This document shows, piece after piece, positions 14,967-31,088 of a stretch of DNA of 31,088 nucleotides. The DNA is from a virus (Duplodnaviria; Caudoviricetes). Both the position numbers and the translations under genes were made by a program. The DNA is taken from positions 1 through 31,088 of IMG/VR virus record IMGVR_UViG_3300021082_000477, one strand, 5' to 3'. Numbering within the stretch: the first letter of the stretch is position 1; every line of letters starts with the position of its first letter. The notes below the pieces were generated by a model. That model had not been told where the DNA came from and ran no database searches. It saw only the letters and a list, made by a program, of their open reading frames with translations.

Positions 14967-15006
14967 AAAAGATGGCAGGAGGGGCAACCACTCCCCTCCC
15001 ACCACC
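14967..15006 (-). terminator. Rho-independent terminator after the capsid/decoration genes
   Basis: Minus strand GGTGGTGGGAGGGG-agtggttg-CCCCTCCTGCCATC followed by TTTT. Confidence 0.75.
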
Positions 15007-15028
15007 TATCACGCATCCCAGTTTTCGA

Positions 15029-15373
15029 CTAGGACACGTAACTTGGATACCAGAGGCCGGAGTTCTTGTCGTAGGTCATGAAGAGGATTTTCCCCACAAC
15101 CGCCGTGAACGCCAGACCAATTGCTTTCGCCGTCGCCGTGCCAGTTCCACCAGTCGCACCGGTGAAAGCGCCAGTTGGACGAAGCGCGATAGTTCCCTCG
15201 AATCCCTCGTAAGGGAGGCCGAAGGTTGTGATCGCGTTCGTGCCGGAGACGACCGTCAACCATCCAGTCACCGCAGGCTGGAGACCGGCGACGGAAGCAA
15301 CAGTGCCTCCGTGAATGCCGAGTTCCTTTGTCCCGAGGTGCTGGAAGTTGGGCCAGAGAGCAGGTGATGCCAT
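15029..15373 (-). CDS. Capsid decoration/cement-like protein (114 aa, MASPALWPNF...)
   Basis: GAGGAG ribosome-binding site; directly after the capsid gene and before the terminator; G/T/A-rich beta protein ending 'MTYD..SGLWYPSY'. Confidence 0.65.
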   Translation of the reverse strand: MASPALWPNFQHLGTKELGIHGGTVASVAGLQPAVTGWLTVVSGTNAITTFGLPYEGFEGTIALRPTGAFTGATGGTGTATAKAIGLAFTAVVGKILFMTYDKNSGLWYPSYVS

Positions 15374-15386
15374 GTTCGCAGTCTCC

Positions 15387-16670
15387 TCAGTAGCCCGACG
15401 GCACTTCCAGCGAATCGATGTAACCGCAAATCGCTGGATTGTCGACGAAGGTGTTGAATGATACAACGATGTAAAAGAGAGAAGCGGCAGCGACGCCACC
15501 GGATGCACCACGGACGGGGAACAGCTTCACGCCGTCCTCCTCGTAGTATCCAGGTGCGTTCATCTCGGCTCGACCCCAGGTTTCGTTCACGACCCAGTCG
15601 ATACGGGTCCGATCCCAGGAGTTCGATTCCTTGATGGGCGTGCCGGCGATGGAATTGACTGAGAAATACAGATCGAGGTTCGGGCTCTTCTCGGTCGTCC
15701 GGTTGATGACCTGAACGGACTGTCCGAGTTCCTCTAACCCCTGCACCTGCGCCGGATGCGTCCACGCCTGCATCTTGACGCCGTTCTCGAGGCCGACGCG
15801 ATCGCGAATCTTGTTGACCAAGAGGCGAGCATACGTCAGCTTGAGCGGGCCAGAATTGGCGTTGACGCGATTGGCGCGAATCTCGGGAGTCACATCCCTT
15901 GCGAACCCGAGCCACGTTCCCGTCGATGCATCGCTGTGATGGTATTTGACCCCGAGAAGACCCACAGGGTTGGCGCCGGACAGTCCAGCAACCACCACCT
16001 TGTCGCCTGCCGTGATCGAGGTGTAAGTCCCCGAGACGCGGAACTTGTGGTTCGACATGTCGATGAGGTCGATACGGAGAGCCGTCCCTTCCGAGTCACC
16101 AGGCGACACGGGAGTGATGGCGCGAGCGGCGGCGATCGTCGAATCATACACCGACACATACTGCCCGAAGCGGAGAAGGCGGATCCGATAGCCGTCCGTC
16201 GTGCAGGTGATCGTGTCCTTGCCGCCAGACGTAGCGACAGAGGTCACGGTAGCGACGACGCCATCACCGGCAGTCATCAGCTGTGAATCGAGCTGTCGAC
16301 GGAACTCACCCATCGACTTTGCAAGAAGGTGACGGAAGGAGTTGACCACCGACTTGCGCGTGTCGTCGGTTGCCCACTGAGCCTTCTTCTGCCACTCGAC
16401 TGCGAACTTCAGATGCACCGTGGAGACAGTCGCCTTGTCGAAGGTTGGACCATCGCCACGTCCGAGGTCTCCGCCAGCGGGGTCGAAATAGCCGAACCGA
16501 CCGCCAGGACGAAGTTCCAAGGGCACCCGCATATCGCGAGCCGAGACCTTATCCACGGGACGCTTCTCGATGTTCCCGTAGAAATACGCGTCGCGGTCGA
16601 AGAGCACGGGGACCTTTGTCTTGGTCTTCTCGAGCTCAGCACCGACGACCTGGGCCTCTGTTTGAGCCAT
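15387..16670 (-). CDS. Major capsid protein (HK97 fold, 427 aa)
   Basis: Follows the acidic scaffold; size, spine-helix-like 'FRHLLAKSMGEFRRQLDSQL' and C-terminal 'NPAICGYIDSL'; GC-rich optimised codons. Confidence 0.85.
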   Translation of the reverse strand: MAQTEAQVVGAELEKTKTKVPVLFDRDAYFYGNIEKRPVDKVSARDMRVPLELRPGGRFGYFDPAGGDLGRGDGPTFDKATVSTVHLKFAVEWQKKAQWATDDTRKSVVNSFRHLLAKSMGEFRRQLDSQLMTAGDGVVATVTSVATSGGKDTITCTTDGYRIRLLRFGQYVSVYDSTIAAARAITPVSPGDSEGTALRIDLIDMSNHKFRVSGTYTSITAGDKVVVAGLSGANPVGLLGVKYHHSDASTGTWLGFARDVTPEIRANRVNANSGPLKLTYARLLVNKIRDRVGLENGVKMQAWTHPAQVQGLEELGQSVQVINRTTEKSPNLDLYFSVNSIAGTPIKESNSWDRTRIDWVVNETWGRAEMNAPGYYEEDGVKLFPVRGASGGVAAASLFYIVVSFNTFVDNPAICGYIDSLEVPSGY

Positions 16671-16685
16671 TGTCGCGTTCCTTGT

Positions 16686-18089
16686 TTAGTTACGGCCCTT
16701 CAGCTTGACCTTATCTCCACCTTCGTCGCTGAGGATGTCCAAGTCAGACGTCTTTCTCCAATCGATTTTACGGGAATCGAGAACCGTAGAGCGACGTCCT
16801 GAACCGCCACCGCGACCCGATGAATCAAATGTCCGCTTCTTGACCTTCTTTTGATTCGTCTGTTCCTCTCCTGTTGCATCGATGGGCTTCTTCTTTCCCT
16901 TCAACGCCTCACGAGTAAGCCTGTCTCTGATCTCTCTCACGAGCGGGTTGGCGCGGGCGACGAGCGCTTGGTATATCGCCACTTTACTCTGCTCGGAGTA
17001 TTCGGACGTTCGGGCTTTACGCCACAATTGCCGAAATCTTGTGCCGAATTGGGGGTCTTTGTTAATCTGGGTCATCGTCTCGTCGAGCGTCTTGTTCACA
17101 ATGAACTCACGCTCAATCGCCGACAACCGATTACTCATGCCCTGCCCAATCGCAATCTTCAGTGTCCGGTCAATACGACCATTCACATCGCCGGAGGCCC
17201 TTGCGAGTTCCCGCTTGGCAGCTTTCTCTCGTTCTTCCTCGAGTGCCACCTCCGCAGGATGTTTCCCACCGACCTTTGTAATGTCCTGGATCTCCCCACC
17301 ATCGGCAAATACATAGTTGGAGATCCACTTGGCAGAGCGGATAAGATTTTCACCCTCTTTGCCACCAATCTTCTTGCCATGTGCCGTCGCGTGAAAGACC
17401 ATCTCGCGGATGATAGGCTCGACAGCATTCTGGAAATATGCGTCGCCATCCATCTCACGAATCGTAGGAAGCAGCCCGGACACAAACTTCTTGTATCCTT
17501 CAGCGCTCCCCTCCTTGACAGTCTCGAGGAAACCCTTGACGTTTCCGCCGAGGACTTGCTCTTCAATTTCGTCATAGTGAGCCGCTTTCGTCACCACAAC
17601 TTGAGCGTCTTCAGGAGTCGCAAACTGCTCCTGGAATTTCGGGTAGTTGAAATACATCTCCCGGAGAGCAGGGAACTGTTTGAAGACTCCAGCGTCCTTG
17701 AGTTGCTTGGCGGTGGGGCGGCCTACAACGACAGGCTTTGCATCCTCATCACCAGGCTTCTCTCCCTTTTTCTCTGGATCTTCTTCCTCTTCCTCGTCCT
17801 CGTCGTCTGACGTTTCCTCGTCGTCTTCGTCAGCATCAGGATCTTCCTCGTCCCCCTCTTCGTCTTCCTCTCCATCATCCTTCGCCCGTTCCTTGGGCTT
17901 CCGAGTAGGGGTCTCGTCATCTTCTTCGAGCTCCTCATCTTCCTCGCCTGATTCTTCTTCACCTGATTCAAGAGCTGCAAGATCCTGATTGAGATCATCG
18001 ACCCCTTCAAGATTCCCATCGCCAGCCGCACCACCACCCTCTCCCTCAAAAAAGAGAGGATGCTTTTGAAGAAAATCGAGAAATCTCAT
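16686..18089 (-). CDS. Capsid scaffolding protein (467 aa)
   Basis: 'PLFFEGEGGG' start, extremely D/E-rich N-terminus, helical core, basic C-terminus; immediately upstream of the capsid gene. Confidence 0.75.
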   Translation of the reverse strand: MRFLDFLQKHPLFFEGEGGGAAGDGNLEGVDDLNQDLAALESGEEESGEEDEELEEDDETPTRKPKERAKDDGEEDEEGDEEDPDADEDDEETSDDEDEEEEEDPEKKGEKPGDEDAKPVVVGRPTAKQLKDAGVFKQFPALREMYFNYPKFQEQFATPEDAQVVVTKAAHYDEIEEQVLGGNVKGFLETVKEGSAEGYKKFVSGLLPTIREMDGDAYFQNAVEPIIREMVFHATAHGKKIGGKEGENLIRSAKWISNYVFADGGEIQDITKVGGKHPAEVALEEEREKAAKRELARASGDVNGRIDRTLKIAIGQGMSNRLSAIEREFIVNKTLDETMTQINKDPQFGTRFRQLWRKARTSEYSEQSKVAIYQALVARANPLVREIRDRLTREALKGKKKPIDATGEEQTNQKKVKKRTFDSSGRGGGSGRRSTVLDSRKIDWRKTSDLDILSDEGGDKVKLKGRN

Positions 18090-18101
18090 TATGTTCTCCT
18101 G

Positions 18102-18395
18102 TTACTTGCAGATCGGAATTGGTTGTGGTTGATTGATGAATCCCTTATAGGATGCACCCTCTTTTTTGCACGCATCCCTCATCTGTTGGACAAGCTCTTT
18201 GCCTGTCTTCTTATTCTGCTCCAGAGCCATGACCTGTCGCAGCTGAGCAATCTGATCCTGAAGCTGCTTGTTCTGCGCTACGACTTGAGCTATCTGTGAG
18301 GCCAGAGCATCGACCTCCTGCTTCGAAGCCTCCTGAGCATTAACAGTCGCACTCAGGAGGAGCGCAATGATAACGGAACTGATAAACTTGGTCAT
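18102..18395 (-). CDS. Secreted coiled-coil protein with Sec signal peptide (97 aa)
   Basis: MTKFISSVIIALLLSATVNA|QE; Q-rich heptads; 2 Cys in the C-terminal part. Confidence 0.8.
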   Translation of the reverse strand: MTKFISSVIIALLLSATVNAQEASKQEVDALASQIAQVVAQNKQLQDQIAQLRQVMALEQNKKTGKELVQQMRDACKKEGASYKGFINQPQPIPICK

Positions 18396-18396
18396 T

Positions 18397-21381
18397 CTAT
18401 CTCCCTCTATTCGGAACTCTCAGCGAACTCATGTTGAGTATAGACGAAGCGTAACTGCTATCGCCTTGGACACAACGGAATTCGACAGGAACAATATCAC
18501 CAACGTTCTTTGGAATCGGAATAGGTTGAATGGTCACCCAGGCTGTGGTCCCACTAACAAATGCAGAACTAGCTGGAGTTCCACTTGGGTCAATCAAAAC
18601 CCCTGCGACAAGAATCTCTACATGGTCCGTTCCCATAGAACAGGCCCCACGGAAATTCGTCTGGTCGCCTCTGAAGAAGTAAGGTTCAGTTCTCGCCGGT
18701 CCAGGATCACTAACCAAAATCGTCCCTGAAGATGCAGCGGAGTAATTCAATGTAACATCGTATGGAACAGAGCAATTCGTTGCTGCATCACAAGCTTGGA
18801 ATCTGATGATGTTGGTTCCTGTCAATGTAACACTTGCCACACTCCAGGGACCTAATCCAGTAACCGTGCAGGATGTTGAGGTAGTAACATTCAAACAAGT
18901 AATCGATGTTACTCCTACATTATCGACTGCTGTTCCAGCTAAGAGATTGTATGTTGAGTCGTTAGTATCGGCTGGGTTATTGACAGGAACAGTAACACCT
19001 AGCGTTGGGGGAGTTGTATCTGCACCAGGACCACCAACAATAGATGTAGCTACGAAACCATCGAAAGTAGCCCCACCCCATCCACCAGCAAAAGCCTCTC
19101 CTGAGGTATATCTACCAGCAGTAGAATCCGTAGCACTCACGATAAGAACGTTATTCTGATCGTAAGCTCTAAGGATAACACTACTTCCTGTATCTTCGCA
19201 TTCTAATGTCCCTGTTTCTCCAGCTATCCAATTTCCGTCTGCGACCTGAGTATTCGGCGCAAGACTAACTCGTTGGCCAGCATCGTATCTAGCAAGGTTA
19301 GTCCCAAGTCCCTGCATCGACATTACGTAGCCGTTGTAAATGCCGGCAGAGGTATAAGAGCTGAAACATCCAAACAGAAGGAAAGATACCTCGGTTACGT
19401 TTGATGTAGATGTAACTTGAACCTTGTAATCGTCCGGCGCTCCACCAGACCAAGGCATGTAAGCAAGATGTCTGGCCAATGCACTAGATATCTGGGCATA
19501 TCCTTGAACACCAATATTCATGGTATTGGTAGTCATCGGCAGCCAACACGGACCCAGTGAACTTGACCATCCACCATTCACGTCGAAAGTATCTGCTGGA
19601 GTAGCAGGACAAGTCCTACGAAGGATATTCGCTAGGACAGCTGTAGAGGTTCCCCCCGAGTTATCTGTAGCTATAAAAGAGAAGGCATTATTAGCCGCGC
19701 CCGTCAAAGTCAAGCCAGAGCAGGTTGCGGTTCCAGCAACTAGTGAGCAAGAACCTGACGCCGAGGTAGGTGCAGTCCTCGTCCAAGCCACACTAGATAC
19801 AGTTCCATCGCTATCTGCATAGGATAGAGTAACGGTTCCAGTTGTAGATGTAGTCTCCTGAGATACAGCCGAGATAATGTTTAAGGTAGGATTGACATTG
19901 GTTGGAGGTGTCCCACCACTTGGCGGCGTAATATCCTTGTAAGTCTGCCAGAAATCTCTCTGCCAGTCTCTGATTGTATTCGTATCGAAATTTGCCTCGG
20001 AGTAAGAGGCTGGCATATACCGCTGCTCATAATATTCGAATAACTGAGGTAGATTTACTGCTAACTTCATCCCCATCATCTTCATTGCGAGGACTTCAGA
20101 GTTAGTAGCCTGACCTACCTGATCTCGATAGCAAGCATGATAAGTAAAACTGTGATTATCCTGTTGAGGAGAAGTCTTGTGGTCACTCCCCCACTCAGGC
20201 TCGTTCAATGAGGACTGAGGATATTGCTCGGCCGGAGTGCAATTCGTTGCTGAGCTTGCTCCAGTCTTACAGCTTGCACAGATGTCAGATTGAGCTACGT
20301 AGAAATACTGATTCGATTCATTGGTTACCGGATGTTGGGCATGATCTCCCCATGCAGCAAGGTCCGCATTACCTAACATCCATCCTGCGAATGCCATCAC
20401 GAATATCTTAGCAGGAGTATGAGAACCCCCCGCAAGCATTCTGATTCCCTGCTGAGGAGTGCCAGTAGCCTTGTCCAACGCATACCTCAGATCGATACCG
20501 TGTTGGATAAGTCTGATAACCCAAGGCGCTTTCTGACCATTAGTATAGTTACTGTTGACTGCCATCGATAAAACACCGATAGCCATGCCAATATTCTGTC
20601 CATACCCATAGTCAGTAGAAAAACCTACCTTTGGACTGTAATTATCCCCTGCATGGAGGTAACGACCTTTCGTCGACATCTCCAATTCAATCTGCGGCTC
20701 GACCATGATAGTATCAAGAAAAGCGACACTATAGGTATTAGTAAAGGTTGTAGGAGGAACAACTGAATGTAACTTACCGTAGTCGATAGAGCTCACATTC
20801 GCCGGCGATGCTTTGCTCACCGTAGCGATATATGAAGGTCTGAAGTCTCCTACGTTGGCATTGGCAGTTACGACCGTCAAGACCTGGATCTGCTTGATGT
20901 AAGATTGATGAGATCCACCGGGACGAGTATCCCCATAGGATTCCGAGGAGAGTAGCGACGACCCCTCAGTAATCACAAGTGGCATCGTAATCCCGACGTT
21001 ATTTCCTGCGGTATAACCTAAGCCTCCTGTGGAATGTCCAATAGTCCGAGAGTCGAATCCGTTCGACCCATACCCCGCCATCGAGGAGCCAGGATTCAAC
21101 ATCGAACCATTACGCGCCGAACCGTCCGCAGCGATAGTGTATGCCGGACTAATACTCTTAATGGAGACAGTCGAGCCACCGGAATTCGTGACCCAGAAAT
21201 CTCCTGTGGCGTATCGACCGCACGTATAGGTCGTCGTAAAAACCCAAGTGATGGTTCCAAGTGCAATGGACGTGCAGGCTTGTGCCGTCGCACTTGAGGC
21301 CGAAGTGAGCGCCTGGGCCTCGACCTTGACAGGGATACCCAGAAGCGTGAGAGAAAGCAGTGCGAGTCCAAGTTTTTTCAT
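18397..21381 (-). CDS. Large secreted multidomain protein (994 aa): signal peptide, ~450-aa globular domain, Ig-like and lectin-like domains
   Basis: MKKLGLALLSLTLLGIPVKVEA|QA; Ig-type motifs 'ADSDGTVSSVAW' and 'DTTPPT...GTAVDNVGVTSI'; 18 Cys, mostly in local pairs. Confidence 0.85.
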   Translation of the reverse strand: MKKLGLALLSLTLLGIPVKVEAQALTSASSATAQACTSIALGTITWVFTTTYTCGRYATGDFWVTNSGGSTVSIKSISPAYTIAADGSARNGSMLNPGSSMAGYGSNGFDSRTIGHSTGGLGYTAGNNVGITMPLVITEGSSLLSSESYGDTRPGGSHQSYIKQIQVLTVVTANANVGDFRPSYIATVSKASPANVSSIDYGKLHSVVPPTTFTNTYSVAFLDTIMVEPQIELEMSTKGRYLHAGDNYSPKVGFSTDYGYGQNIGMAIGVLSMAVNSNYTNGQKAPWVIRLIQHGIDLRYALDKATGTPQQGIRMLAGGSHTPAKIFVMAFAGWMLGNADLAAWGDHAQHPVTNESNQYFYVAQSDICASCKTGASSATNCTPAEQYPQSSLNEPEWGSDHKTSPQQDNHSFTYHACYRDQVGQATNSEVLAMKMMGMKLAVNLPQLFEYYEQRYMPASYSEANFDTNTIRDWQRDFWQTYKDITPPSGGTPPTNVNPTLNIISAVSQETTSTTGTVTLSYADSDGTVSSVAWTRTAPTSASGSCSLVAGTATCSGLTLTGAANNAFSFIATDNSGGTSTAVLANILRRTCPATPADTFDVNGGWSSSLGPCWLPMTTNTMNIGVQGYAQISSALARHLAYMPWSGGAPDDYKVQVTSTSNVTEVSFLLFGCFSSYTSAGIYNGYVMSMQGLGTNLARYDAGQRVSLAPNTQVADGNWIAGETGTLECEDTGSSVILRAYDQNNVLIVSATDSTAGRYTSGEAFAGGWGGATFDGFVATSIVGGPGADTTPPTLGVTVPVNNPADTNDSTYNLLAGTAVDNVGVTSITCLNVTTSTSCTVTGLGPWSVASVTLTGTNIIRFQACDAATNCSVPYDVTLNYSAASSGTILVSDPGPARTEPYFFRGDQTNFRGACSMGTDHVEILVAGVLIDPSGTPASSAFVSGTTAWVTIQPIPIPKNVGDIVPVEFRCVQGDSSYASSILNMSSLRVPNRGR

Positions 21382-22187
21382 CGTCTAACTCCAGGAAATC
21401 CCATCATGCCACCGACATTACGAGTTGCTCCACCAGCTAGAGTTTCCTCTAATGCGGCTACCAGATCATTCCAAACACGAGAAACACTGATGGATCCTGC
21501 GAAATCGTCACCTGTAGCTGTCTGAACAAGATAACCAGTATTTAAAATTTGAGAAGTCAAAGCTGTCCCTGTATTAGCTAATCGGGACGAACCACAAGTG
21601 AATGTTGCATCACAAGTAATACTGCCTGATGAATGGCTCATGCTAATTGCGCCAAGCCATAATCTCTCTATATTAGATAAACTCGCAATACCACCTGTAG
21701 AATAACTTGTGCTTGTTCCTGAACCTTGTGCAGTAGTTCCTGCTGGTGCTACAGTCGAACCAGCTGAAACAGAGAATATCCAAAGATTGACTACTTTTCC
21801 TTCTGATGAACCATTACCTGTATTGCAAGTAACTGTATCAGTGGTCTCAAGGATATTTGTAAGCTGACTATAAAAAAGACCAGCTATTTGGTCGGTCGTA
21901 GCATTATTGACTGTGCGCTCAACTAACCGAGTATATACATTGATTCCATCATTATCTGATACTGACATTACTGTCGTAGCACCAGATGACCCTGCTCCTG
22001 TATAATGAGCAGAACAATGGACAATAGCAACTCTACCTATCGGTGCATCTGCGCCTAGTCCTGTTACTCCTACTGTTGCTCCTGCTGCTGTGGCAGTCCC
22101 AAATGCACCATTCTCAATCAAAGACCAAGTAGCCTCAGCAGGAGAAGCTACAAGACAAATGAGTAGAATGACTAGAAACTTTCTCAT
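21378..22187 (-). CDS. Secreted beta-rich protein with Sec signal peptide (269 aa)
   Basis: MRKFLVILLICLVASPAEA|TW; T/S/G-rich beta sequence; 4 Cys in the mature chain; lower GC than neighbours. Confidence 0.8.
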   Translation of the reverse strand: MRKFLVILLICLVASPAEATWSLIENGAFGTATAAGATVGVTGLGADAPIGRVAIVHCSAHYTGAGSSGATTVMSVSDNDGINVYTRLVERTVNNATTDQIAGLFYSQLTNILETTDTVTCNTGNGSSEGKVVNLWIFSVSAGSTVAPAGTTAQGSGTSTSYSTGGIASLSNIERLWLGAISMSHSSGSITCDATFTCGSSRLANTGTALTSQILNTGYLVQTATGDDFAGSISVSRVWNDLVAALEETLAGGATRNVGGMMGFPGVRR

Positions 22188-23359
22188 TACCGATACCTCA
22201 CCATGACAACGACATCATCCAACCCAGGATCAGTTGCATCTGTCACTGCTTTGCCGGTTGCGAGGTAGCAGGTTAGAGCAGTAGCGAAAGGAACGTCAAC
22301 TTTTGTATCGATCATCCCTGAACTGAAGGGAATAATCTCGTCGTAGATAACTGCTGTCGATCCCGGTGTCGTGCTCGCCGCCACAGCATTCGTGCATCTC
22401 ACATACGCATTGGTTGAGGCATGAGCATTCCAACCAGTTATCCCACAGATGACTCCAGCCGTTGACTTGATCTCAGTCTCATCATCGTTGTTCGTATTGT
22501 CCGAACGAATGATGGTCTGGGAACAAGGAGCATATCCTGGCCACCGATCCCACGTTCCCGCTGGATCAAGGTAGTGAGGATAGGTAGCAATCTTTGTCAG
22601 TGTAGGGTTGGCCGTATTGTCAGCCAGAGCAGCCGCAGCCCCAAACAGTGCTGTCCCATTTACTGCAGGAACGACAAATTGGTCTCCCTTATCGTTACAA
22701 TGGAGCCAACTCAAATTGGTATCAAAGCTCAGGGCCGTCGGAACCCCAGGGTCTGACTTGCATAACGTAACAACACCATCCTGACTAACCAGTGCGGCAT
22801 TGTTATGATAATTGAGTGTCCCGAATTGTGCCACAGTCCCATCTTCGTTGTAAGCGATTGTGGGCATCAGATAAGGAATAGTGGAATCTCCTGTCGCATG
22901 TAGCTTCAACGTATTACCATCGAAGGTAACATTGACAGTTCCAGTAACGACCCCACCACCGCCACCACCACCAGAGCCACTACCTCCACCCGTTGCCGTA
23001 GCGTGCATCCTGACAGTAGCAGTGCCAGCGTCGATGCAGGACCGCATGAACCGATATCCGGCAACTCCCGCAGCCCACGCACCAGTCGTTGTCGTAGTAG
23101 AGGCCGGAACACCAGCCGTGCTCGTTCCCGCAATCGTCTGGTAGAGAGCAGTTGTATCGAGCGTGGAAACCGAGAACGTCATGGTAGCGCCAGCGATCGC
23201 CGTCACCTGCCAGACGCCAGTTCCCATGTTCGGAAGTTCGAGAGTCTGACAGAGCTGCGATGTGCTCAAGCTGTAGGTTTGACCCTTCCAGTCCTGGGCA
23301 TAGGCTCTGCTAGTGAGAGCTACAAAACAAACGAGAACAAGCAGAAGCCTTTTCATCAT
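22187..23359 (-). CDS. Secreted spike/fibre-like protein with Sec signal peptide (390 aa)
   Basis: MMKRLLLVLVCFVALTSRAYA|QD; N- and C-terminal beta-sandwich-like domains joined by a poly-Gly linker; 8 Cys in the mature chain. Confidence 0.8.
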   Translation of the reverse strand: MMKRLLLVLVCFVALTSRAYAQDWKGQTYSLSTSQLCQTLELPNMGTGVWQVTAIAGATMTFSVSTLDTTALYQTIAGTSTAGVPASTTTTTGAWAAGVAGYRFMRSCIDAGTATVRMHATATGGGSGSGGGGGGGVVTGTVNVTFDGNTLKLHATGDSTIPYLMPTIAYNEDGTVAQFGTLNYHNNAALVSQDGVVTLCKSDPGVPTALSFDTNLSWLHCNDKGDQFVVPAVNGTALFGAAAALADNTANPTLTKIATYPHYLDPAGTWDRWPGYAPCSQTIIRSDNTNNDDETEIKSTAGVICGITGWNAHASTNAYVRCTNAVAASTTPGSTAVIYDEIIPFSSGMIDTKVDVPFATALTCYLATGKAVTDATDPGLDDVVVMVRYR

Positions 23360-25794
23360 GCCCCTATCTCCTCAACTTCACTTTCGTCAGATGTTTCTTC
23401 ACCTGATTCTTCTGGAGCAGGAGCGAGCATTGCTTCGGCTTCTCTGTGCATCTTGAAATGAGAATAGACGTTCAACCACGCACCGGGCTTGTTTATCTTG
23501 TAGTCCAGCCCGATATCTGACTTGAGCCAGTATGCGCAGGTATCGCCTTCGATCTTATGGTCATCGAGAAGTGGATCGATTTGGATGGAGGGCATAACAT
23601 CTGACCCCTCCTCGCCCATTGCTGTCGGAACCCCATTCGGGATCTCGATTGGCTCCTCGGCGATAAGCTTCGAGATTTCCCAGAGCTGCTTGACTCTATC
23701 CTGATCGCCGGGGATGTGCATCTCGGGAAGCCCAACAAGTCGAGCAACCAGAGAGGAGTTCTGTGGGTCTGACATCACCGACTCGATCATCGGGTTCTGC
23801 ATCTGTATGAGACCGAGAATCGCAGAACGCTTTTCATTCCACGAGACTGGGAGCGACTCAGATCCTTCCGCGTAGGCGTCACCAATCTTGCCAGTGAGCT
23901 TCGCATGCTCCACCCATACATTGACGAACGTGTTGCCAGACTGGGTCGTCCACCGCTCATCCTGCCCTGACTCCATCAAATAGTCCGAGTGGGCATTGAC
24001 AGCTTTTCCGATAACTTGCACCCAGAAAGTCGTGACCATCTTCCAGGTCGTCGATAGCCGCTGGAGAGCTTGTGTCCGGGACATCTCGTATTCTTTGGCG
24101 GTGTTAGATCCGCCGTCAATTTGTCCACCAAACACCGAGGGGAGGGAGCCAACAACAAACTGCGCAAACTTCTCCAAGCGGTCTGCGAATGACTCGACTT
24201 CCTTCGAGAGGGTGCCACCTTTAACCTCATGGAAATTATTGCCCATCGGCTCACCCGGCATTTTGGTCGCCGGATAGTTCATGCCAGGACGGGCTTCTGA
24301 CTTTTCGTAGTTGTCCCAATCGATGGTATCGGAATTGATGTAGACCTCAGGAATTGCGTGCTCGATATTCTCCAGAGTCAGGTTGCCCAACTCATTCGTC
24401 ATGTCCTGCACTGGCATAACCGGCGCACCGATTGGCTCAGCGTGGAGAACGTCTGAGAGAGGATGAACTGTGCAAGTCCAATGGTCGTCCAGCTTGTCGT
24501 CAACGGCCTCTGCAATAATGCCATCGTTGATGATGACGACGTAACAACCTTTCGGGAACTTGTCTTTGAGAACCTGAACCCGAGCTTTGTTATCTTCTGT
24601 CTTTACTCCAAGCGTATTGAACGCCCAGGGTCTGAGCCAGCAGCGACGAACTGTGACCAGATCTCGCGGGAAGTCCCCAGAATACGCCGGCGTCGCACGA
24701 TGGGTTCGATCGGAATACTCTGGATTGCCTGAAGGTTCGATGTGTTCCTGAATCTCCTCATAGATACTCTGCATCTTGGCGTAGTGCTCTTCAGTCTCCA
24801 AGATGAGATAAGGCGAATCATTGAGACGACGAATCCACGCAGGGAGTTTGACATTGAGCGGACCCCAGAAGGTGAGGATTTGACGACACTTATTTTCCTT
24901 CTCCCAGCCTGTGGTCTCGGATGCTAGCTCGTCGTAGTCCTCAAACTCCAGAGGGACTCTAACTTCAGTTCCTGATTTGCCGGAACAGTTAGGACAAATT
25001 CCTTCTTGTATGGGAATGTTCGCTGGCTGAACAATTTGTGGGGAGGATTCGAGTTCCTCTCCACCTTCAGGCACAATCGTCTCTTCAGGATCTTCTTCCT
25101 GATTATCCCCAACCATCCCAGTCTCAGGGTCCGGTGGAAGATTAGAGTCCAACTGCTCAGATCCAAGCGCCATTCCACAATCTGGACAGAAGTAGTCACG
25201 TCTTGTCTTTGGAACTTCCTCGGTGATTTCTCGATCGATGGTTCCATATTCCTCTGACTCCATTGTCTCGTTATACGCACAGACGAGACCTTGGTTATAG
25301 AGTAGGAACAACGCTTTCGTCATGAGTAGGTCAGCGTAATTGTGTCGCTGGATCAACTCAGCAAGCTTCGTCTTACTCTTAGCACAGAGGATATCGTCTG
25401 GATTGTCGGCGTCGTCTGGCGGAAACTGAATCTTAGGAGTGGAACTACTCATCGCGGCAATGATGATCTCACCGTGCGCGCGATAGATATTGATGACCTT
25501 GGCGTAGAGAGCGGGGTCGATGGAAACTCGGTCATCGCCCGTCAGGTCAGTTCGGGCCTGGTCTGGAGTTCTCCAATCGTAGACGGTATCGTTCCACCAG
25601 AGATACTGGAGATGATCCCAATAGAACATCTGCTTGCGGTATTTGCGAATGAGGCGATCCCTCGCAGATTTGTCCGCTAGCTCGAGATTCTTTACGATTG
25701 TCCAGAGGTCCTGCGCCCAATCCTCATCCTTCAGGAGCTTTTCGCTACTCTGTTGGGCGGGCGCTTTCCTCTGCAGTTCCGGAGTTTCCAGCAT
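23356..25794 (-). CDS. Portal protein (812 aa) with an internal CxxC...CxxC insertion
   Basis: Large gene after terL; 'VINIYRAHGE', 'P.D....D...A....L', 'QD..N.L' and 'G......TA.E....R.QA' features typical of podovirus portals. Confidence 0.8.
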   Translation of the reverse strand: MLETPELQRKAPAQQSSEKLLKDEDWAQDLWTIVKNLELADKSARDRLIRKYRKQMFYWDHLQYLWWNDTVYDWRTPDQARTDLTGDDRVSIDPALYAKVINIYRAHGEIIIAAMSSSTPKIQFPPDDADNPDDILCAKSKTKLAELIQRHNYADLLMTKALFLLYNQGLVCAYNETMESEEYGTIDREITEEVPKTRRDYFCPDCGMALGSEQLDSNLPPDPETGMVGDNQEEDPEETIVPEGGEELESSPQIVQPANIPIQEGICPNCSGKSGTEVRVPLEFEDYDELASETTGWEKENKCRQILTFWGPLNVKLPAWIRRLNDSPYLILETEEHYAKMQSIYEEIQEHIEPSGNPEYSDRTHRATPAYSGDFPRDLVTVRRCWLRPWAFNTLGVKTEDNKARVQVLKDKFPKGCYVVIINDGIIAEAVDDKLDDHWTCTVHPLSDVLHAEPIGAPVMPVQDMTNELGNLTLENIEHAIPEVYINSDTIDWDNYEKSEARPGMNYPATKMPGEPMGNNFHEVKGGTLSKEVESFADRLEKFAQFVVGSLPSVFGGQIDGGSNTAKEYEMSRTQALQRLSTTWKMVTTFWVQVIGKAVNAHSDYLMESGQDERWTTQSGNTFVNVWVEHAKLTGKIGDAYAEGSESLPVSWNEKRSAILGLIQMQNPMIESVMSDPQNSSLVARLVGLPEMHIPGDQDRVKQLWEISKLIAEEPIEIPNGVPTAMGEEGSDVMPSIQIDPLLDDHKIEGDTCAYWLKSDIGLDYKINKPGAWLNVYSHFKMHREAEAMLAPAPEESGEETSDESEVEEIGA
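25017..25033. promoter_or_regulatory. Palindromic site TGTTC-N7-GAACA, copy 2 (inside the portal insertion)
   Basis: TGTTCGCTGGCTGAACA. Confidence 0.6.
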
Positions 25795-26617
25795 CTTTCG
25801 CCTCTGCTTCTTCGATCTTCTTCTTCCAGATGGCTTCCTTGGCGTCGTTCGTTATCTTCTGTGCTGCTCTCTCCAAATTGACTGCCTGCTGATTCCAGGT
25901 CGGTGGCCGAGAACTTACTGGTTTGTGATTCACCGGTGTCTGAGAAGTGTCACGAGGAGAAAGACCCAATCGGTCCCTCAATCCCGCAGTGACTTCCCTC
26001 TCGTGAACAATCGACGAATCGAATCTTTGCCGTTCAAGTTCGAGAGCTGCCTGGAGATCGCTAAGCCTAGCTTCCGCAGCTTGCTTAGCGTCAATGGCTT
26101 GATCTCGTTGTGTGAGCAGGAGCTCATTTGTAGCTCCATAATCTCGGATGACTTTTTTGAGCGCATTCCGCTCGATTGTCCCTGTCTCAATAACATGAGA
26201 CTGGTCTGCGATTGTCTGTTTGTGTTCATGTTGTGTGCTCTGATATCCCTGAATCTCTTTGTTCTGTCGGGCGATTGTATCAGCGAGGAGATCAATCTGC
26301 GCCTGCTTCTGTAACTGGATTGCTTGATATCCTGATATTACCTTCGCATGACCTGAAGCTTCTTCCTCTGCCCTGTTATACATCTTCTCGAAATCATTGA
26401 GAGACTGTATTGCATACCTGAGTCTCTTATGACTGGGAATCAGCTTTATCTTCGACGCAACTCCCTCAGTGGGCCACGTAACCAACGCCTCTGGATCTTC
26501 CACGATAGACCGGACGAGGCCCGTGAGACGCTCCTTCAAACGCGTGCATCTGTCGATAATAACGAGTCCAATCTTGTGTGCGCTCCAAGTTCTCGATGAT
26601 CTCGGCAAGTTTGTCAT
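25745..26617 (-). CDS. Coiled-coil hypothetical protein between terminase and portal
   Basis: Long heptad-rich helix; start uncertain (ATG 26617 has an AAGGAAAGG site but overlaps the terL 3' end; a later start is possible). Confidence 0.6.
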   Translation of the reverse strand: MTNLPRSSRTWSAHKIGLVIIDRCTRLKERLTGLVRSIVEDPEALVTWPTEGVASKIKLIPSHKRLRYAIQSLNDFEKMYNRAEEEASGHAKVISGYQAIQLQKQAQIDLLADTIARQNKEIQGYQSTQHEHKQTIADQSHVIETGTIERNALKKVIRDYGATNELLLTQRDQAIDAKQAAEARLSDLQAALELERQRFDSSIVHEREVTAGLRDRLGLSPRDTSQTPVNHKPVSSRPPTWNQQAVNLERAAQKITNDAKEAIWKKKIEEAEAKDAGNSGTAEESARPTE

Positions 26618-28121
26618 GTGCCTTTCCTTTTCTCTTGGATTCATTGATAAGTCTGTGGAACGCTTTGATTAGATAGCGTCCCCCGTCATACGGATCGTCT
26701 CCGTTAAACTCTGCAACATCCTCGATAACCTGCCCGTCCTTGTCCTCGTAAACACAAGCAGGGATGGTCTTTCGGAAGTTGACACATCGTCGACATACCT
26801 GGAGTTTCGGGATGTTTGTTTCCGAGGGCTCCGGTTGGAAGAGCTCGTAATATTCAGTCGCGGCATTTGGACCACTTCGGCGGAGGACCTCTTGAAAAGT
26901 CTCGACATTGAACCCCTCCTGTGGAATGTATGAGGGAGGCTTCTGCTTCCACCTCAACATCTCATGCATCAACATCTTGCCGCCGAGTCTGTCGTTATCT
27001 GCCTTCTCCCAGATCATGCCCGTTGCATCCATGATCTGTTCTGCGATTGAACGCTGTTCCCCTCTCTTGGCCCACGCCGATGGGTCTAGAACCTTGACAC
27101 GAATGGAATCGATCTCATGCTCAGAGATTCGCTGAACATCAGCTCCCCAATCTGCAATGTCAGCTCGCTCGGCGACGTATTCTCGATACAGGAAACATCT
27201 GGAGTCGGGAGAGACTGCACCCCATCCAACCCAAGTCTGAGCGGCATATCCCCAGTCTGCAGCGATGACGCGTGGCCACCAGAGGGGAGGCTCGAAGTCC
27301 GGGATGACGTGTGATGCATTTGATGGCTCGTCCTGAAAGTTGACCCCAGTGAAAAGGTCTCGCCACTCCGAGAATACCTGACCCGCGAAAACCCACCAAT
27401 CTCCGAGAACCTTGGCTCTGCGCTCAGCCTCTGGGAGGAGATTCAATCTCTTGATGTAACCAGGGTCCGACTTCATCAGATAAGGATTGTCAGTCAACTT
27501 AGCGGGAATGAACATCCGCTTTGTCTCTGACGCCTTATCGTAGATGATTACCCGTCCGTTTGGATTTGGCCCAACGAATCGGTCCCTGACCCAGATGTGT
27601 CCGATATTGCCGGGATTAGTTGCTCCTCGAACAATTGCAGGAACGCCTGGGATACTCGAGCGGCACCGCGATGTGATATAGATATATCTGTTGAAGTGAG
27701 GGGAATGCGGTAACGACGTGAGCTCATCAAATCCAGCGTATTGATATTCAGCTGTATCGTGATCTCTGGCATCCTGGTCAGTTTCGAGATAGGAGAATCT
27801 AATGGTTGCGCCAGACGGGAAAGTCCACACATGCTTGGTGTCGTTATAGCGTCCAGCAAGGTGCTTATAGAAACCGTGAGAGCGTGGGATAAGAGACTCT
27901 TCGAGTTGCGGGAAAGTCTTCCTGAAGATAATGCCCTGGAATCCCGGGACGTCATGCCAACCGTAAAGGATTGGGAGCATAAGGAGAAGTTCACTCTTAC
28001 CTCCCCCCGCAGCACCACCGTAAAGGGCTTCGAAGATTGAGAACGGGAGCTTAACGAACTCCGCCTGGATGTCGTGTGGCTTCCAGATTTTCTCATATCG
28101 TCCTACGACCTCTACAGGCAT
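26466..28121 (-). CDS. terL: Terminase large subunit
   Basis: Walker A YGGAAGGGKS, Walker B GFDELT, coupling motif ATNPG, RNase H-like nuclease motifs AADWGY and DDPYDGGRY. Confidence 0.95.
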   Translation of the reverse strand: MPVEVVGRYEKIWKPHDIQAEFVKLPFSIFEALYGGAAGGGKSELLLMLPILYGWHDVPGFQGIIFRKTFPQLEESLIPRSHGFYKHLAGRYNDTKHVWTFPSGATIRFSYLETDQDARDHDTAEYQYAGFDELTSLPHSPHFNRYIYITSRCRSSIPGVPAIVRGATNPGNIGHIWVRDRFVGPNPNGRVIIYDKASETKRMFIPAKLTDNPYLMKSDPGYIKRLNLLPEAERRAKVLGDWWVFAGQVFSEWRDLFTGVNFQDEPSNASHVIPDFEPPLWWPRVIAADWGYAAQTWVGWGAVSPDSRCFLYREYVAERADIADWGADVQRISEHEIDSIRVKVLDPSAWAKRGEQRSIAEQIMDATGMIWEKADNDRLGGKMLMHEMLRWKQKPPSYIPQEGFNVETFQEVLRRSGPNAATEYYELFQPEPSETNIPKLQVCRRCVNFRKTIPACVYEDKDGQVIEDVAEFNGDDPYDGGRYLIKAFHRLINESKRKGKAHDKLAEIIENLERTQDWTRYYRQMHAFEGASHGPRPVYRGRSRGVGYVAH

Positions 28122-28127
28122 TGGGTC

Positions 28128-28430
28128 CTATTCGTCCAGGTAAACAATCTCGATCGCTCTCGGCCCGACTTTCCGGTCGTCTTGCGGCGGCGGAATGATT
28201 GGACTGAACTCGATCCTATCCCCAATCGATAGGTCCTTCAATTGTTTCGTCGTCGACTTCTTGAAGGTTGAGTGATGGAAGAAGTAATCAACTCCGTCAT
28301 CCCCCGCGACGAAACCAAATCCCTTGTCAGCTCGCACCTTACGAACTCGACCACGAAGACGGGAAAGGGTATCGAGCATGGAACCTTTGATCCCAACGAG
28401 AACCGGATGGTCAGCTAATAGTGGATCCAT
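28128..28430 (-). CDS. Cold-shock domain (CspA-family OB-fold) nucleic-acid-binding protein
   Basis: RNP1 KGFGFV, RNP2 DYFFH, 'L..GDRIEF' and 'GPRA' motifs; alternative start at 28379. Confidence 0.9.
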   Translation of the reverse strand: MDPLLADHPVLVGIKGSMLDTLSRLRGRVRKVRADKGFGFVAGDDGVDYFFHHSTFKKSTTKQLKDLSIGDRIEFSPIIPPPQDDRKVGPRAIEIVYLDE

Positions 28431-29154
28431 TTGCCCCTACTTCTATGACGTCGTATGTGGATTCGTCGTTCTGCTCAGGCCGATAGATATGGAAATGAAC
28501 CCCGCCGTCGTTAAGGTTCCCATCCTTTGGCGTGACATCTTTGATGATTCCTGAAAGACTCTTGGCGACTGAGACCAGCTTGCCCACGTCCTTGATCTCG
28601 CCCAGCTTATCCTCAGTTACAAGGTCGAGAGAGCGAATCAGTTTCGAGAACGCTCGCTTCGAAACCTCCTGCCCTTGCGAGTAAATCTCATCCAGGAGGT
28701 CGTCTTTGCGATTGCCCTTCTTTTTCTCGATGGGGCCTGTGTAACCTTGAGTGAGATGAGAGAGGACTGGCTGGCTGACTCCGAACATCTGCTCGGTTGC
28801 AGTCCCGCCCAGAAGGAGCCGGGAAAGACCCAGGGAAGCATTCTCCTCAAGCGAGCGGTTTGGGATATTCTTCTTTCTCCCGGCCCGCGAGAATCCACCC
28901 GACTCGATGATCTTGTCCAGTTGAAGGAGGTCGGTGGGAGATAAAGGACTGTCTTGCTCTCTCCGAACCCCAGGTCCATTCCCACTCGATACGTCGTCCA
29001 ATCCGGAAAGAGATTCATTTGGTGCCTCAAAGACCGGAACAACAGGAGCGGGAACTGCTACAGGTTCAAGAGGAACTTCCCGATCAACTCTCGAGAGAAC
29101 GTTCCTTGGATCTTGCAGCCGCCGCTCCGATTCTTCCGGTGTCATAAAGGACAT
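28411..29154 (-). CDS. Putative terminase small subunit (247 aa)
   Basis: First gene of the late operon, two genes upstream of terL; HTH-like 'TATEQMFGVSQPVLSHL', oligomerisation helices and C-terminal beta strand 'VHFHIYRP'. Confidence 0.55.
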   Translation of the reverse strand: MSFMTPEESERRLQDPRNVLSRVDREVPLEPVAVPAPVVPVFEAPNESLSGLDDVSSGNGPGVRREQDSPLSPTDLLQLDKIIESGGFSRAGRKKNIPNRSLEENASLGLSRLLLGGTATEQMFGVSQPVLSHLTQGYTGPIEKKKGNRKDDLLDEIYSQGQEVSKRAFSKLIRSLDLVTEDKLGEIKDVGKLVSVAKSLSGIIKDVTPKDGNLNDGGVHFHIYRPEQNDESTYDVIEVGANGSTIS

Positions 29155-29238
29155 GATTACACCTATTACTAGATACGGAGATACACTTCGTCTCGTCTTG
29201 CTACTTATCGATGGACTAGCCTGAGGGCGATCTAGAAC

Positions 29239-29267
29239 AGTATACTCTCAAGGCTGATCAATTGCAA
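29239..29267 (-). promoter_or_regulatory. Sigma70-type promoter of the late operon
   Basis: Minus strand TTGCAA-17 nt-TATACT, about 85 nt upstream of ATG 29154. Confidence 0.7.
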
Positions 29268-29302
29268 GTGCCGAATTGATTAGGGATTTTGCGATTTTGA
29301 AT

Positions 29303-29319
29303 TGTTCGCGTGATGAACA
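29303..29319. promoter_or_regulatory. Palindromic site TGTTC-N7-GAACA, copy 3 (upstream of the late promoter)
   Basis: TGTTCGCGTGATGAACA. Confidence 0.65.
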
Positions 29320-29375
29320 TTAAATCCCTTCCTCATCAATACTCTAGTCGAGGGACCCATAGACCACAACCTTAT

Positions 29376-29444
29376 GATATGGGACCCTATTTCTGGGCAC
29401 ACATACTCGTTCGATAGTAATCCCCTACCCAGGATATGGGACCC
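29376..29444 (+). repeat. 12-bp direct repeat GATATGGGACCC (29376 and 29433), with a further GGGACCC at 29352
   Basis: Read directly from the sequence upstream of the late promoter. Confidence 0.6.
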
Positions 29445-29581
29445 GTGCGGAGGGGACGGGGGGAGTCTGCTGTCGGTGGGCTGGACCGTCAAACAATTGG
29501 CTGTCGGTTGGGCCTGTGGATCTGCCAAGCTAATTGTGGGGCATGTGACCTATCATGCGGCCTGGCTACGCTGGCATCATG

Positions 29582-29623
29582 GAAAGGAAAAGGCCCTGAT
29601 CACCACTTGGCAATCAGGGCCTT
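29582..29623 (-). terminator. Rho-independent terminator of the 29644..30183 gene
   Basis: 11-bp stem AAGGCCCTGAT...ATCAGGGCCTT followed by TTCCTTT on the minus strand. Confidence 0.75.
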
Positions 29624-29643
29624 CGTATTACCCGCGTGGCGAT

Positions 29644-30183
29644 CTACTTCAATTCGCCATTGAACACGTAATCGGCGGCCAGCTTGTTCTGGGCCTTCAT
29701 GCGACCAACCACGAATTCGAGTGCCTCTTGATTGGTATCGAACGTGCCGCCATCGACAAGGGCCTTCACCTGTTTGGCGATTGCCTTCTCCGGGCCTTCC
29801 AGATCCGATTCCAGCGCCGTCCGCACGTTCTGGCGCACGTTCAAGATACGACCGTAGTTGAAGTGATCGCAGGCACCCAGTTTCGCCTTCGCCTTTGCGA
29901 CCTCGACCGTGTCGTCCTTCTCCGCTTCCGATGCCGCCTCGATCTTGCCGCCCATCAAAAGGCCCATGCCGAGCGCGTCCAGAGCGTAGAGCGCGTCGAA
30001 CTCGCGTGTTTCGTCCTTCTTCGTAGGGGACACTTTGGCGCTGATCTTGATCGACTCGATCCGATGACCGAGGTGCTTGTCCACGATTGCAGCGATGACC
30101 GCTTCCGGAAGGGCCTTCACGGTTTTCTCGGGGGCCTTGCCGGTGACGATGCTTGCCGCTTGTTCCTTCTGTTCGTCTGCCAT
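29644..30183 (-). CDS. Stand-alone hypothetical protein (179 aa, MADEQKEQ...)
   Basis: GGAG ribosome-binding site before ATG 30183, own promoter and terminator, GC-rich third codon positions. Confidence 0.85.
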   Translation of the reverse strand: MADEQKEQAASIVTGKAPEKTVKALPEAVIAAIVDKHLGHRIESIKISAKVSPTKKDETREFDALYALDALGMGLLMGGKIEAASEAEKDDTVEVAKAKAKLGACDHFNYGRILNVRQNVRTALESDLEGPEKAIAKQVKALVDGGTFDTNQEALEFVVGRMKAQNKLAADYVFNGELK

Positions 30184-30237
30184 TGTGTATCTCCGTATCG
30201 TCAGAATCAAGTAGCTCAATTGCTACTTACAAGGGGA

Positions 30238-30266
30238 ATGATACGCCCATTCAATACCGTTGTCAA
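30238..30266 (-). promoter_or_regulatory. Near-consensus sigma70 promoter
   Basis: Minus strand TTGACA-17 nt-TATCAT upstream of ATG 30183. Confidence 0.8.
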
Positions 30267-30309
30267 GGCCCAAGTGCAGGATCGCCCAAAATATTTTTCA
30301 GTGTAAAAT

Positions 30310-30423
30310 TTACCCACTCCCGATACTGCTGAGCTTGATGCCGTCGGCCTCGATACCGACTGTGGCCAGCGCCAGGACCAGGAACTTGAACGTCTGGGTA
30401 TGGAAATGTCTGGGTGTGGTCAT
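30310..30423 (-). CDS. Possible 37-aa peptide (MTTPRHFHTQTFKFLVLALATVGIEADGIKLSSIGSG)
   Basis: AGGA before the ATG; GC-rich third positions in an otherwise AT-richer non-coding region. Confidence 0.4.
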   Translation of the reverse strand: MTTPRHFHTQTFKFLVLALATVGIEADGIKLSSIGSG

Positions 30424-30727
30424 ATATCCTAGTATTTTATCGATCACCGTGCGTATAGTATAGTGTGCGACATAGGCCCTAGAACAAATTGTAAGGCCCA
30501 TAGATCAATTCGATACCCTACCACTTGCAAGCTAGTATAGGCCAAACGATCGCCCCGTAGATCATTTTTAAACGCGCTGAACATTTATAGGACATTCTAG
30601 CCTTGGTTGACTGGAAAGAGCTCTATTTGTCCTGTCTGGGTCTGTAGTCTATGAACTACTATCGAAAAAAACCTGTGGAAAACTCGCTGAACATTATTCT
30701 AGACACGATCCATGCCAGATTTCCTAA

Positions 30728-30744
30728 TGTTCGCGCGATGAACA
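30728..30744. promoter_or_regulatory. Palindromic site TGTTC-N7-GAACA, copy 4 (terminal non-coding region)
   Basis: TGTTCGCGCGATGAACA. Confidence 0.65.
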
Positions 30745-31088
30745 ATAGGCTAAAACCCCAATGACGCAATTCCTGGTCCAAGTCTCCTCGACATTTACTA
30801 TTCGATTACATATCGCCTACCTATCTTCTACTGATCTATCTCTTTTCGTTCTCTGATTCATACCCTGATCGTTTCACATAGACCTAGATCCGCAAGATCA
30901 TTAGCATTTTCGCAAATAATGCCCAGATCAGAATCAAAACCTATCCCCTTATAGACCAGGATCCCCCCCCCTCCCCACCTCCCGTTGAACATTAGGTAAG
31001 GATAGTATAGGGTTGATAGGTCTTGTTGTTCTTTATTGATTTTTTTTTTTAACAATCAGAAGAGACACGAAAACCACAACTATCCTAG

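Follow-up and report, generated by a model that had tools for sequence, protein, structure and literature searches.

The window analysed here is a 31,088-nucleotide stretch of tailed-phage DNA (IMG/VR record IMGVR_UViG_3300021082_000477, positions 1 to 31,088), and our subject is a cassette of four genes, A to D, set into its late region. Late genes run on the minus strand in the order cold-shock gene, terminase (PHROG match, E 2e-42), portal, four-gene cassette, scaffold and major capsid protein (MCP), followed by an SU10-type adaptor (PF24175) and nozzle-like, host-specificity and tail-spike genes; the phage is short-tailed. The cassette open reading frames (ORFs) lie where the first-pass annotation had placed them, all on the minus strand between portal and scaffold: A (22187..23359, 390 amino acids (aa)), B (21378..22187, 269 aa), C (18397..21381, 994 aa) and D (18102..18395, 97 aa). 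The tight coupling it described is also present, at −4 for portal/A (ATGA), −1 for A/B (TAATG), −4 for B/C (ATGA) and +1 for C/D; the D/scaffold junction is +12. Promoter-like and terminator-like sites in 15000–31088 occur at chance level (11 versus 13.1 ± 3.6 and 16 versus 12.8 ± 3.1, respectively), so the remark that no promoter was seen is neither contradicted nor proven. The cassette has no flanking repeats and no RNA families. Pfam, PHROGs and NCBIfam give nothing informative for A, B and D, and for C only phrog_34846, of unknown function.

All four proteins begin with a leader of the kind handled by the Sec pathway and signal peptidase I (SPI), with predicted cuts AYA↓Q (A, residues 1–21, 23297..23359, minus strand), AEA↓T (B, 1–19), VEA↓Q (C, 1–22) and VNA↓Q (D, 1–20). 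These calls come from our own rule-based scan for a basic n-region, a hydrophobic h-region and an A-x-A site. Only A–D score 4.6 or above, 4 of the 34 called minus-strand ORFs; none of 1450 internal starts scores 5 or more, and applied to 852 conserved core-family proteins of related loci the rule flags 1, its false-positive rate. Each of the four has a basic n-region and a site of A-x-A type, three of them with Gln at +1. There is no lipobox or TAT motif, and no 19-residue stretch of the mature chains exceeds a hydropathy of 1.67. By sequence, A–D have the features of Sec/SPI-exported proteins, with cleavage predicted. Mature cysteine counts are 8, 4, 18 and 2 for A, B, C and D, all even, as first counted. 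The accompanying description of the pairs as mostly local stands for C and partly for B; it fails for A, where the invariant pair C322/C364 is 42 residues apart and C37/C108 are separated by 71.

Gene A is differentiated into two jelly rolls with a Gly linker and a β-rich stalk between them. The N-terminal jelly roll (residues ~22–125; 22985..23296, minus strand) is modelled at a predicted local distance difference test score (pLDDT) of ~45–50, the C-terminal one (~275–390; 22190..22537, minus strand) at 75–92; the latter carries C322/C364, invariant in 15/15 A-family sequences. The whole model, built on a 15-row alignment, has a mean pLDDT of 55 and places jelly rolls at both ends. Fold matches of the C-terminal domain are tied between XepA, nucleoplasmin-family domains and the KHP40 cement protein (Z 7.4–8.0). 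XepA/YomS, at Z 7.9–8.0 within that tie, have no sequence match to A, and a PDB sequence search with A gave no meaningful match. The N-terminal domain is common to other A-type proteins. From the model, A is likely to be the base and stalk of a spike.

Gene B encodes a β-rich domain, whose Atlas neighbours are unnamed, mostly viral clusters of like size, and a hydrophobic-Gly C-terminal tail, VGGMMGFPG (21381..21434, minus strand). This tail is a candidate docking peptide, a loose version of an LLG[VAI]G pattern that recurs in related cassettes. Complex prediction with four copies of the A C-terminal domain and the B tail returned no answer (score 0.00), which speaks neither for nor against docking. 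Codon use in B is aberrant, with a third-position GC content (GC3) of 0.22 against 0.42–0.73 in the other 17 genes tabulated, and this suggests recent acquisition. In sequencing run X3, one contig tracks the window through A and five codons into B, then at ~22173 passes into unrelated sequence that again encodes a hydrophobic, leader-like stretch; gene B has apparently been exchanged in this co-occurring variant.

Could the N-termini be uncleaved anchors, signal-arrest-release (SAR)-like tethers or relics of secreted host genes? The proteins would then join virions in the cytoplasm or at the inner membrane, with disulfides forming after lysis. Leader cleavage here is predicted from a sequence rule, virion disulfide networks are known without export, and the codon use of B fits a recent arrival. 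Against this stand the n-regions, cleavage sites and +1 Gln described above, the retention of leaders across diverged A homologues (9/13 by our rule) and the X3 variant, which diverges after codon 5 of B and is still leader-like (one contig). We regard this explanation as improbable.

Gene C combines a domain of some 460 residues, β-sandwich repeats and a galectin/CBM66-like domain. Its N-terminal domain (residues 30–488; 19918..21294, minus strand) is a widespread, unnamed β+α domain, modelled mostly at pLDDT 75–98, in which conserved His, Glu, Tyr, Arg and Trp residues are kept and several family Gly, Phe and Arg positions are replaced. The C family spans 1,284 representative clusters (a whole-protein count), so that C holds a domain of more than 1,000 clusters without a solved fold. 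There is no PDB fold match for this domain, nor an Atlas match outside its own family (TM <0.3), an absence that is weak because the whole-protein model is dominated by the galectin-like part; the PDB sequence search with the family gave no meaningful match. No Pfam, PHROG function, PDB or named Atlas match marks it as a polysaccharide lyase or glycoside hydrolase, and the conserved His/Tyr/Arg/Glu are a suggestive hint, and only that, of a catalytic type. Residues 635–760 (19102..19479, minus strand) form a predicted galectin/ConA-like β-sandwich (Z ≤ 7.0; Foldseek to CBM66, E 0.007) in a low-confidence region of the model. Taken from these models, C is likely a glycan-binding or glycan-cutting cargo.

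A leaderless homologue of the C N-terminal domain, fused to a lectin-like N-terminal part, occurs in the tail module of cluster-J mycobacteriophages (21 records), a cultured source in which the domain could be studied. In Mycobacterium phage Halley it is gp45 (L243, 5266–7386; L and f numbers are our handles for loci and protein families), annotated as a minor tail protein. Its counterpart in Redno2 is labelled 'lysin A', though a separate lysin A follows in Halley.

Gene D comprises a leader, a coiled coil and a terminal Cys pair. No homologue was found, and it shows no detectable relation to the D-position family of L252, L255 and L257 or to the leaderless coiled-coil families f22 and f85. 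A spanin assignment was rejected, there being no lipobox, no mature transmembrane segment, a cleavable-type leader and no spanin PHROG match. Its sequence makes an exported assembly chaperone possible.

The first-pass annotation treated the cassette as singular. Instead, it is one of several contents of a swap slot found across the clade and, at the same time, an instance of a module shared across unrelated capsid lineages. We collected 240 loci anchored on MCP, the 80 best from each of three sets (281 viral, at least 478 metagenome and at least 267 genome matches), called ORFs on the MCP strand and removed duplicates; the slot was counted in the 84 distinct viral and metagenome loci with portal and scaffold in view, with prophage loci from metagenome-assembled genomes (MAGs) set aside. 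It is empty in 50 of the 84, holds only leaderless ORFs in 26 (mostly 75–125-aa β-proteins, some of these calls perhaps spurious) and holds leader-bearing soluble proteins in 8. The portal–scaffold interval is a swap site. When MCP sequences of 78 loci are placed on a FastTree tree, 9 of them (window included) show the exported state, which needs 6 changes against a mean of 8.7 in shuffles, fewer, yet not one origin. The nearest relative on the tree, L004, has an exported fusion of a small domain and a fibre in the slot; in the sister clade, 5/6 loci hold a leaderless 75–85-aa family, f13. The N-terminal domain of the exported L004 and L134 proteins matches leaderless family f21 (hhalign 94%). 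PDB sequence searches with f13 and f21/f123 gave no meaningful match. In four loci (L074, L082, L117 and L142) a leaderless, enzyme-like protein of 400–427 aa (f70) sits in the slot beside a small β-protein.

Three pairs of homologues with and without a leader were verified by blast, their starts checked against upstream frames. Both members of L141/L021 (38%, E 8e-12) lie in the slot, whereas the leaderless copies of L027/L257 (30%, E 2e-14) and L060/L049 (29%, E 8e-12) lie in the tail module. Each exported copy of the first two pairs has two Cys, against 1 (elsewhere) or 0 in its leaderless counterpart; neither copy of the third has any. Across the loci, 40/50 Cys-containing exported proteins have even counts against 203/503 core proteins (Fisher p 6e-8, a test in which related proteins are not independent). 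DsbA-like matches (PF13462) are present in 5/5 Acidobacteriota MAGs that hold related prophages. The earlier proposal of export and oxidative folding is well supported by this comparison of sequences, through leaders in homologues, Cys parity and the co-occurrence of leaders with Cys pairs. The idea that exported cassettes replace a cytoplasmic tail fibre was dropped, the pattern being inconsistent across loci.

A scan with the A family found 14 loci, or 12 distinct ones after removal of the window's own record and one duplicate. As called, A-type genes have a leader in 10/12, two starts being ambiguous, and a PHROG-labelled head or packaging gene lies within 10 kb in 10/12. Downstream, the window order repeats by type, a ~240–270-aa exported protein being followed by a large Cys-rich exported one. 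The latter is a full-length homologue of C in L247 (27%, E 1e-41) and has β-helix or LamG domains at the C position of other loci; L252, L255 and L257 add a ~95–110-aa exported helical protein at the D position. In 9/12 loci a neighbour bears an LLG[VAI]G-type peptide; eight have it at the C-terminus, and in L251 it comes immediately behind the leader. The B tail of the window is looser and the B-position proteins mostly lack detectable homology, so that layout is better conserved in this module than sequence. Inside the exported cassettes of L246, L247 and L252, a leaderless ~140-aa protein absent from the window cassette follows gene A and is a candidate cytoplasm-made adaptor. These other phages have further leader-bearing genes (L253 7941–8768, L248 7865–8329, L246 17903–19497 and L257 16363–16683), either immediately downstream of the major capsid gene or within tail modules.

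For the cassette, head-operon coupling, leader-type N-termini, even Cys counts and a variable slot are established, and the models place two jelly rolls in A and a putative galectin-like domain in C. On this footing we propose a modular head spike that is folded in the periplasm and docks on finished capsids at lysis, and we put its probability at roughly one half. The four late genes would send predicted spike parts through Sec into the host periplasm for disulfide folding by Dsb proteins, and lysis, in mixing the compartments, would let the exported spike dock on finished capsids. A would oligomerize, probably with five-fold symmetry, as base and stalk; B, and perhaps C, would clip onto its distal jelly roll by terminal peptides in the manner of the fibre of RcGTA (the gene transfer agent of Rhodobacter capsulatus); C would bind or cut capsule or extracellular polysaccharide (EPS) for first attachment; and D would be an exported assembly helper. 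The kit would be an accessory, because the tail spike of this podophage (347 aa) is leaderless. Docking on virions at lysis, also proposed in the first-pass annotation, whose interpretation is partly supported, is suggested by gene position and by resemblance to known head spikes.

Several observations weigh against this proposal. The fold matches of A are jelly rolls of a generic kind (Z ≤ 8.5), and those listed do not include the RcGTA base. The A N-terminal domain has weak links to leaderless slot families (pairwise E 8e-4 to f123, and 0.003 to one f13 member). The B tail fits LLG[VAI]G loosely, the pattern having been widened to take it in, and although B looks like the proteins at the B position elsewhere and like the leaderless family f172 (L025/L026), these resemblances are not significant. 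A-type cassettes stand beside at least six PHROG major-capsid families, at varying positions and in both podo- and sipho-type layouts, a spread for which a fixed capsid interface would hardly account. The C N-terminal domain is common in secreted-looking bacterial proteins, 56/149 listed matches passing the leader rule. Paired Cys alone do not imply an export route, since the disulfide-crosslinked virions of Milano (PMC10811340, PMC10491603) and Jabs (PMC13419713) are described with no export reported. A, B, MCP and portal have no match in cultured phages.

The same leaders and Cys parity would fit equally well a kit that is exported and never enters virions. Such a kit, an alternative of the type also raised in the first-pass annotation, could assemble late in infection in the periplasm or on the cell surface. 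Or lysis could set it free as a glycan-binding or glycan-cutting complex, which would remove capsule or EPS ahead of the progeny, prevent superinfection or serve as a decoy. The range of unrelated capsid types accompanied by the cassette argues for this, as does the occurrence of the C N-terminal domain in secreted proteins of Verrucomicrobiota, Acidobacteriota and Planctomycetota clusters. So does XepA, a tied best fold match, reported to be an exported pentamer of double jelly rolls that is not found in mature PBSX particles (PMC6834076). However, the slot also holds leaderless homologues of exported proteins, which can act only in the cytoplasm or on particles; A-type genes lie within morphogenesis operons in those 10/12 loci; and Tunturi_2, a cultured phage considered below, has leaders on large fibre-annotated genes. 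We hold a purely non-virion role to be less likely than the spike, though its main competitor.

The window DNA is identical to a stretch of a 45.4-kb, 97%-complete IMG/VR record. Genes for a DNA polymerase A, a helicase and nucleases are present in this record, and there are 0 matches to PF00589 (tyrosine integrase) and PF00239 (resolvase). Since it brings its own replication genes and lacks an integrase or resolvase match, the phage is likely a lytic podophage of ~45 kb. MCP has at least 2,254 relatives; its best 80 genome matches are mostly prophages in Acidobacteriota MAGs (36–42% identity), and a host in that phylum is therefore likely. These figures bear on whether the cassette is a lysogenic-conversion moron, or a passenger host adhesin cassette, with a promoter of its own. 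Slot variability and mosaic codon use would suit such an origin, as would the prophage state of the more distant capsid relatives; the missing integrase and resolvase, the phage's replication genes, the tight translational coupling to portal and the lack of excess promoter or terminator signal all oppose it. Lysogenic conversion is thus very improbable.

The best holders of the window DNA are freshwater-sediment and soil metagenomes, with no RNA data sets among those listed. Reads of run X3 cover 30/30 bins of 15000–27000, and no contig joins across the cassette in the 4 runs examined. One 44.5-kb clade member (L163) is binned in a Saccharibacteria MAG and is probably a mis-binned phage contig.

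The flanking genes, also on the minus strand, are labelled indirectly. Portal (23356..25794) and MCP (15387..16670) have no direct Pfam or PHROG match, and their names derive from where they lie, how well they are conserved and profile links to proteins labelled by PHROGs: the portal-family profile reaches proteins called portal by PHROGs (E 1.5e-8), and the MCP-family profile a PHROG major head protein (E 1e-7), MCP relatives matching phrog_14242. MCP has no meaningful match in a PDB sequence search. The putative scaffold (16686..18089) is named from position and its acidic N-terminus and composition. The portal contains two CxxC pairs (C203/C206 and C267/C270) around an acidic insert, found also in L002, which by sequence likely form a Zn-ribbon. 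The cold-shock domain gene (PF00313, E 1e-9; 28128–28430) lies directly upstream of terL and is kept there in many relatives (19/113 loci). After MCP, at 15029–15367 (minus strand, start approximate), the window has a member of a conserved ~100–120-aa family present in up to three tandem copies in relatives. In the fuller record (L259), a family-A DNA polymerase is fused to a uracil-DNA glycosylase domain (2129–4783, minus strand), and a ParB-methylase fusion is also encoded.

Taken more broadly, the cassette may represent a plug-and-play, Sec-exported spike system common to tailed phages of Acidobacteriota and other soil and sediment bacteria, a tentative view to which we give slightly less than even odds. 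It would pair a jelly-roll base and stalk with interchangeable, peptide-tagged heads that bind or cut glycans and with a small exported chaperone; built with host Dsb proteins, the parts would clip onto capsids at lysis, a two-compartment virion assembly. In the accepted picture, tailed phages finish their particles in the cytoplasm, using proteins without leaders. If the spike proposal is true, exported virion parts add an assembly step outside the cytoplasm, phages could obtain receptor-binding modules from secreted host domains that depend on disulfides, and many soil-virome genes with signal peptides, at present set aside as morons or auxiliary genes, would be explained. A docking system based on peptide tags would also lend itself to use as a display platform. 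For tailed phages, the full-text literature searched contains no description of virion parts exported by Sec, most subscription papers and supplements lying outside it. Even if the kit stays off the virion, an exported multi-part glycan-targeting complex of a lytic phage is undescribed in that literature.

Among known systems, lambdoid morons (lom, bor) are exported products of late operons that serve lysogens and have their own promoter and terminator; the window phage differs in showing no integrase and tight coupling. A genomic parallel comes from Tunturiibacter phage Tunturi_2 (PP885685), a cultured podophage of Acidobacteriota. Scanning its 26 late genes found leaders on gp12, gp14, gp16 and gp17, with gp13 borderline and one weak, false-looking call on gp35. 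The leader genes are annotated as tail fibre, pectin lyase and virion structural protein, and have 10–34 mature Cys. Like the cassette, gp12–gp17 form a block of leader-bearing, Cys-rich late genes; unlike it, the block follows the adaptor, is tail-fibre annotated and has no sequence match to A–D. The main text of the Tunturi_2 paper mentions neither signal peptides nor mass spectrometry (PMC11924767), and our idea is testable in the cultured Tunturi phages.

XepA of PBSX and YomS of SPbeta (PDB 6I56) share with A a pair of jelly rolls joined by a linker, in an exported phage protein. XepA superimposes on the A C-terminal domain at Z 7.9–8.0 (rmsd 3.4–3.7, ~98 aligned residues), within the generic jelly-roll range. 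It belongs to a lysis cassette in a monoderm host; what sets A apart is its long stalk, its leader of Sec type and its invariant Cys. Milano and Jabs place Cys in core capsid and tail proteins; in the window, Cys pairs track with leaders in accessory genes. Like the proposed spike, the turrets of the archaeal virus HFTV1 are a two-tier capsid ornament for first attachment: a hexamer of gp30 forms the base and a trimer of gp31 the head, whose domains bind carbohydrate and resemble deacetylases (PMC12494034, with 0 occurrences of signal peptides or disulfides). Similar in plan is the RcGTA head spike, a jelly-roll base pentamer (Rcc01079) on which the Rcc01080 fibre docks by the peptide IALGLGLGL, with a proposed role in capsule polysaccharide binding (PMC7296036). 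By our models, the cassettes would likewise join a jelly-roll unit to a partner with a short hydrophobic-Gly terminal peptide. In the window, though, the base-like domain of A is fused to a stalk and a second jelly roll, all parts have leaders and paired Cys, and the peptide is mostly C-terminal in the cassettes; sequence searches gave no link, and binding of the capsid is a proposal. The cassette would be a variant among capsid-ornament systems, with an assembly route that, if confirmed, is new in kind.

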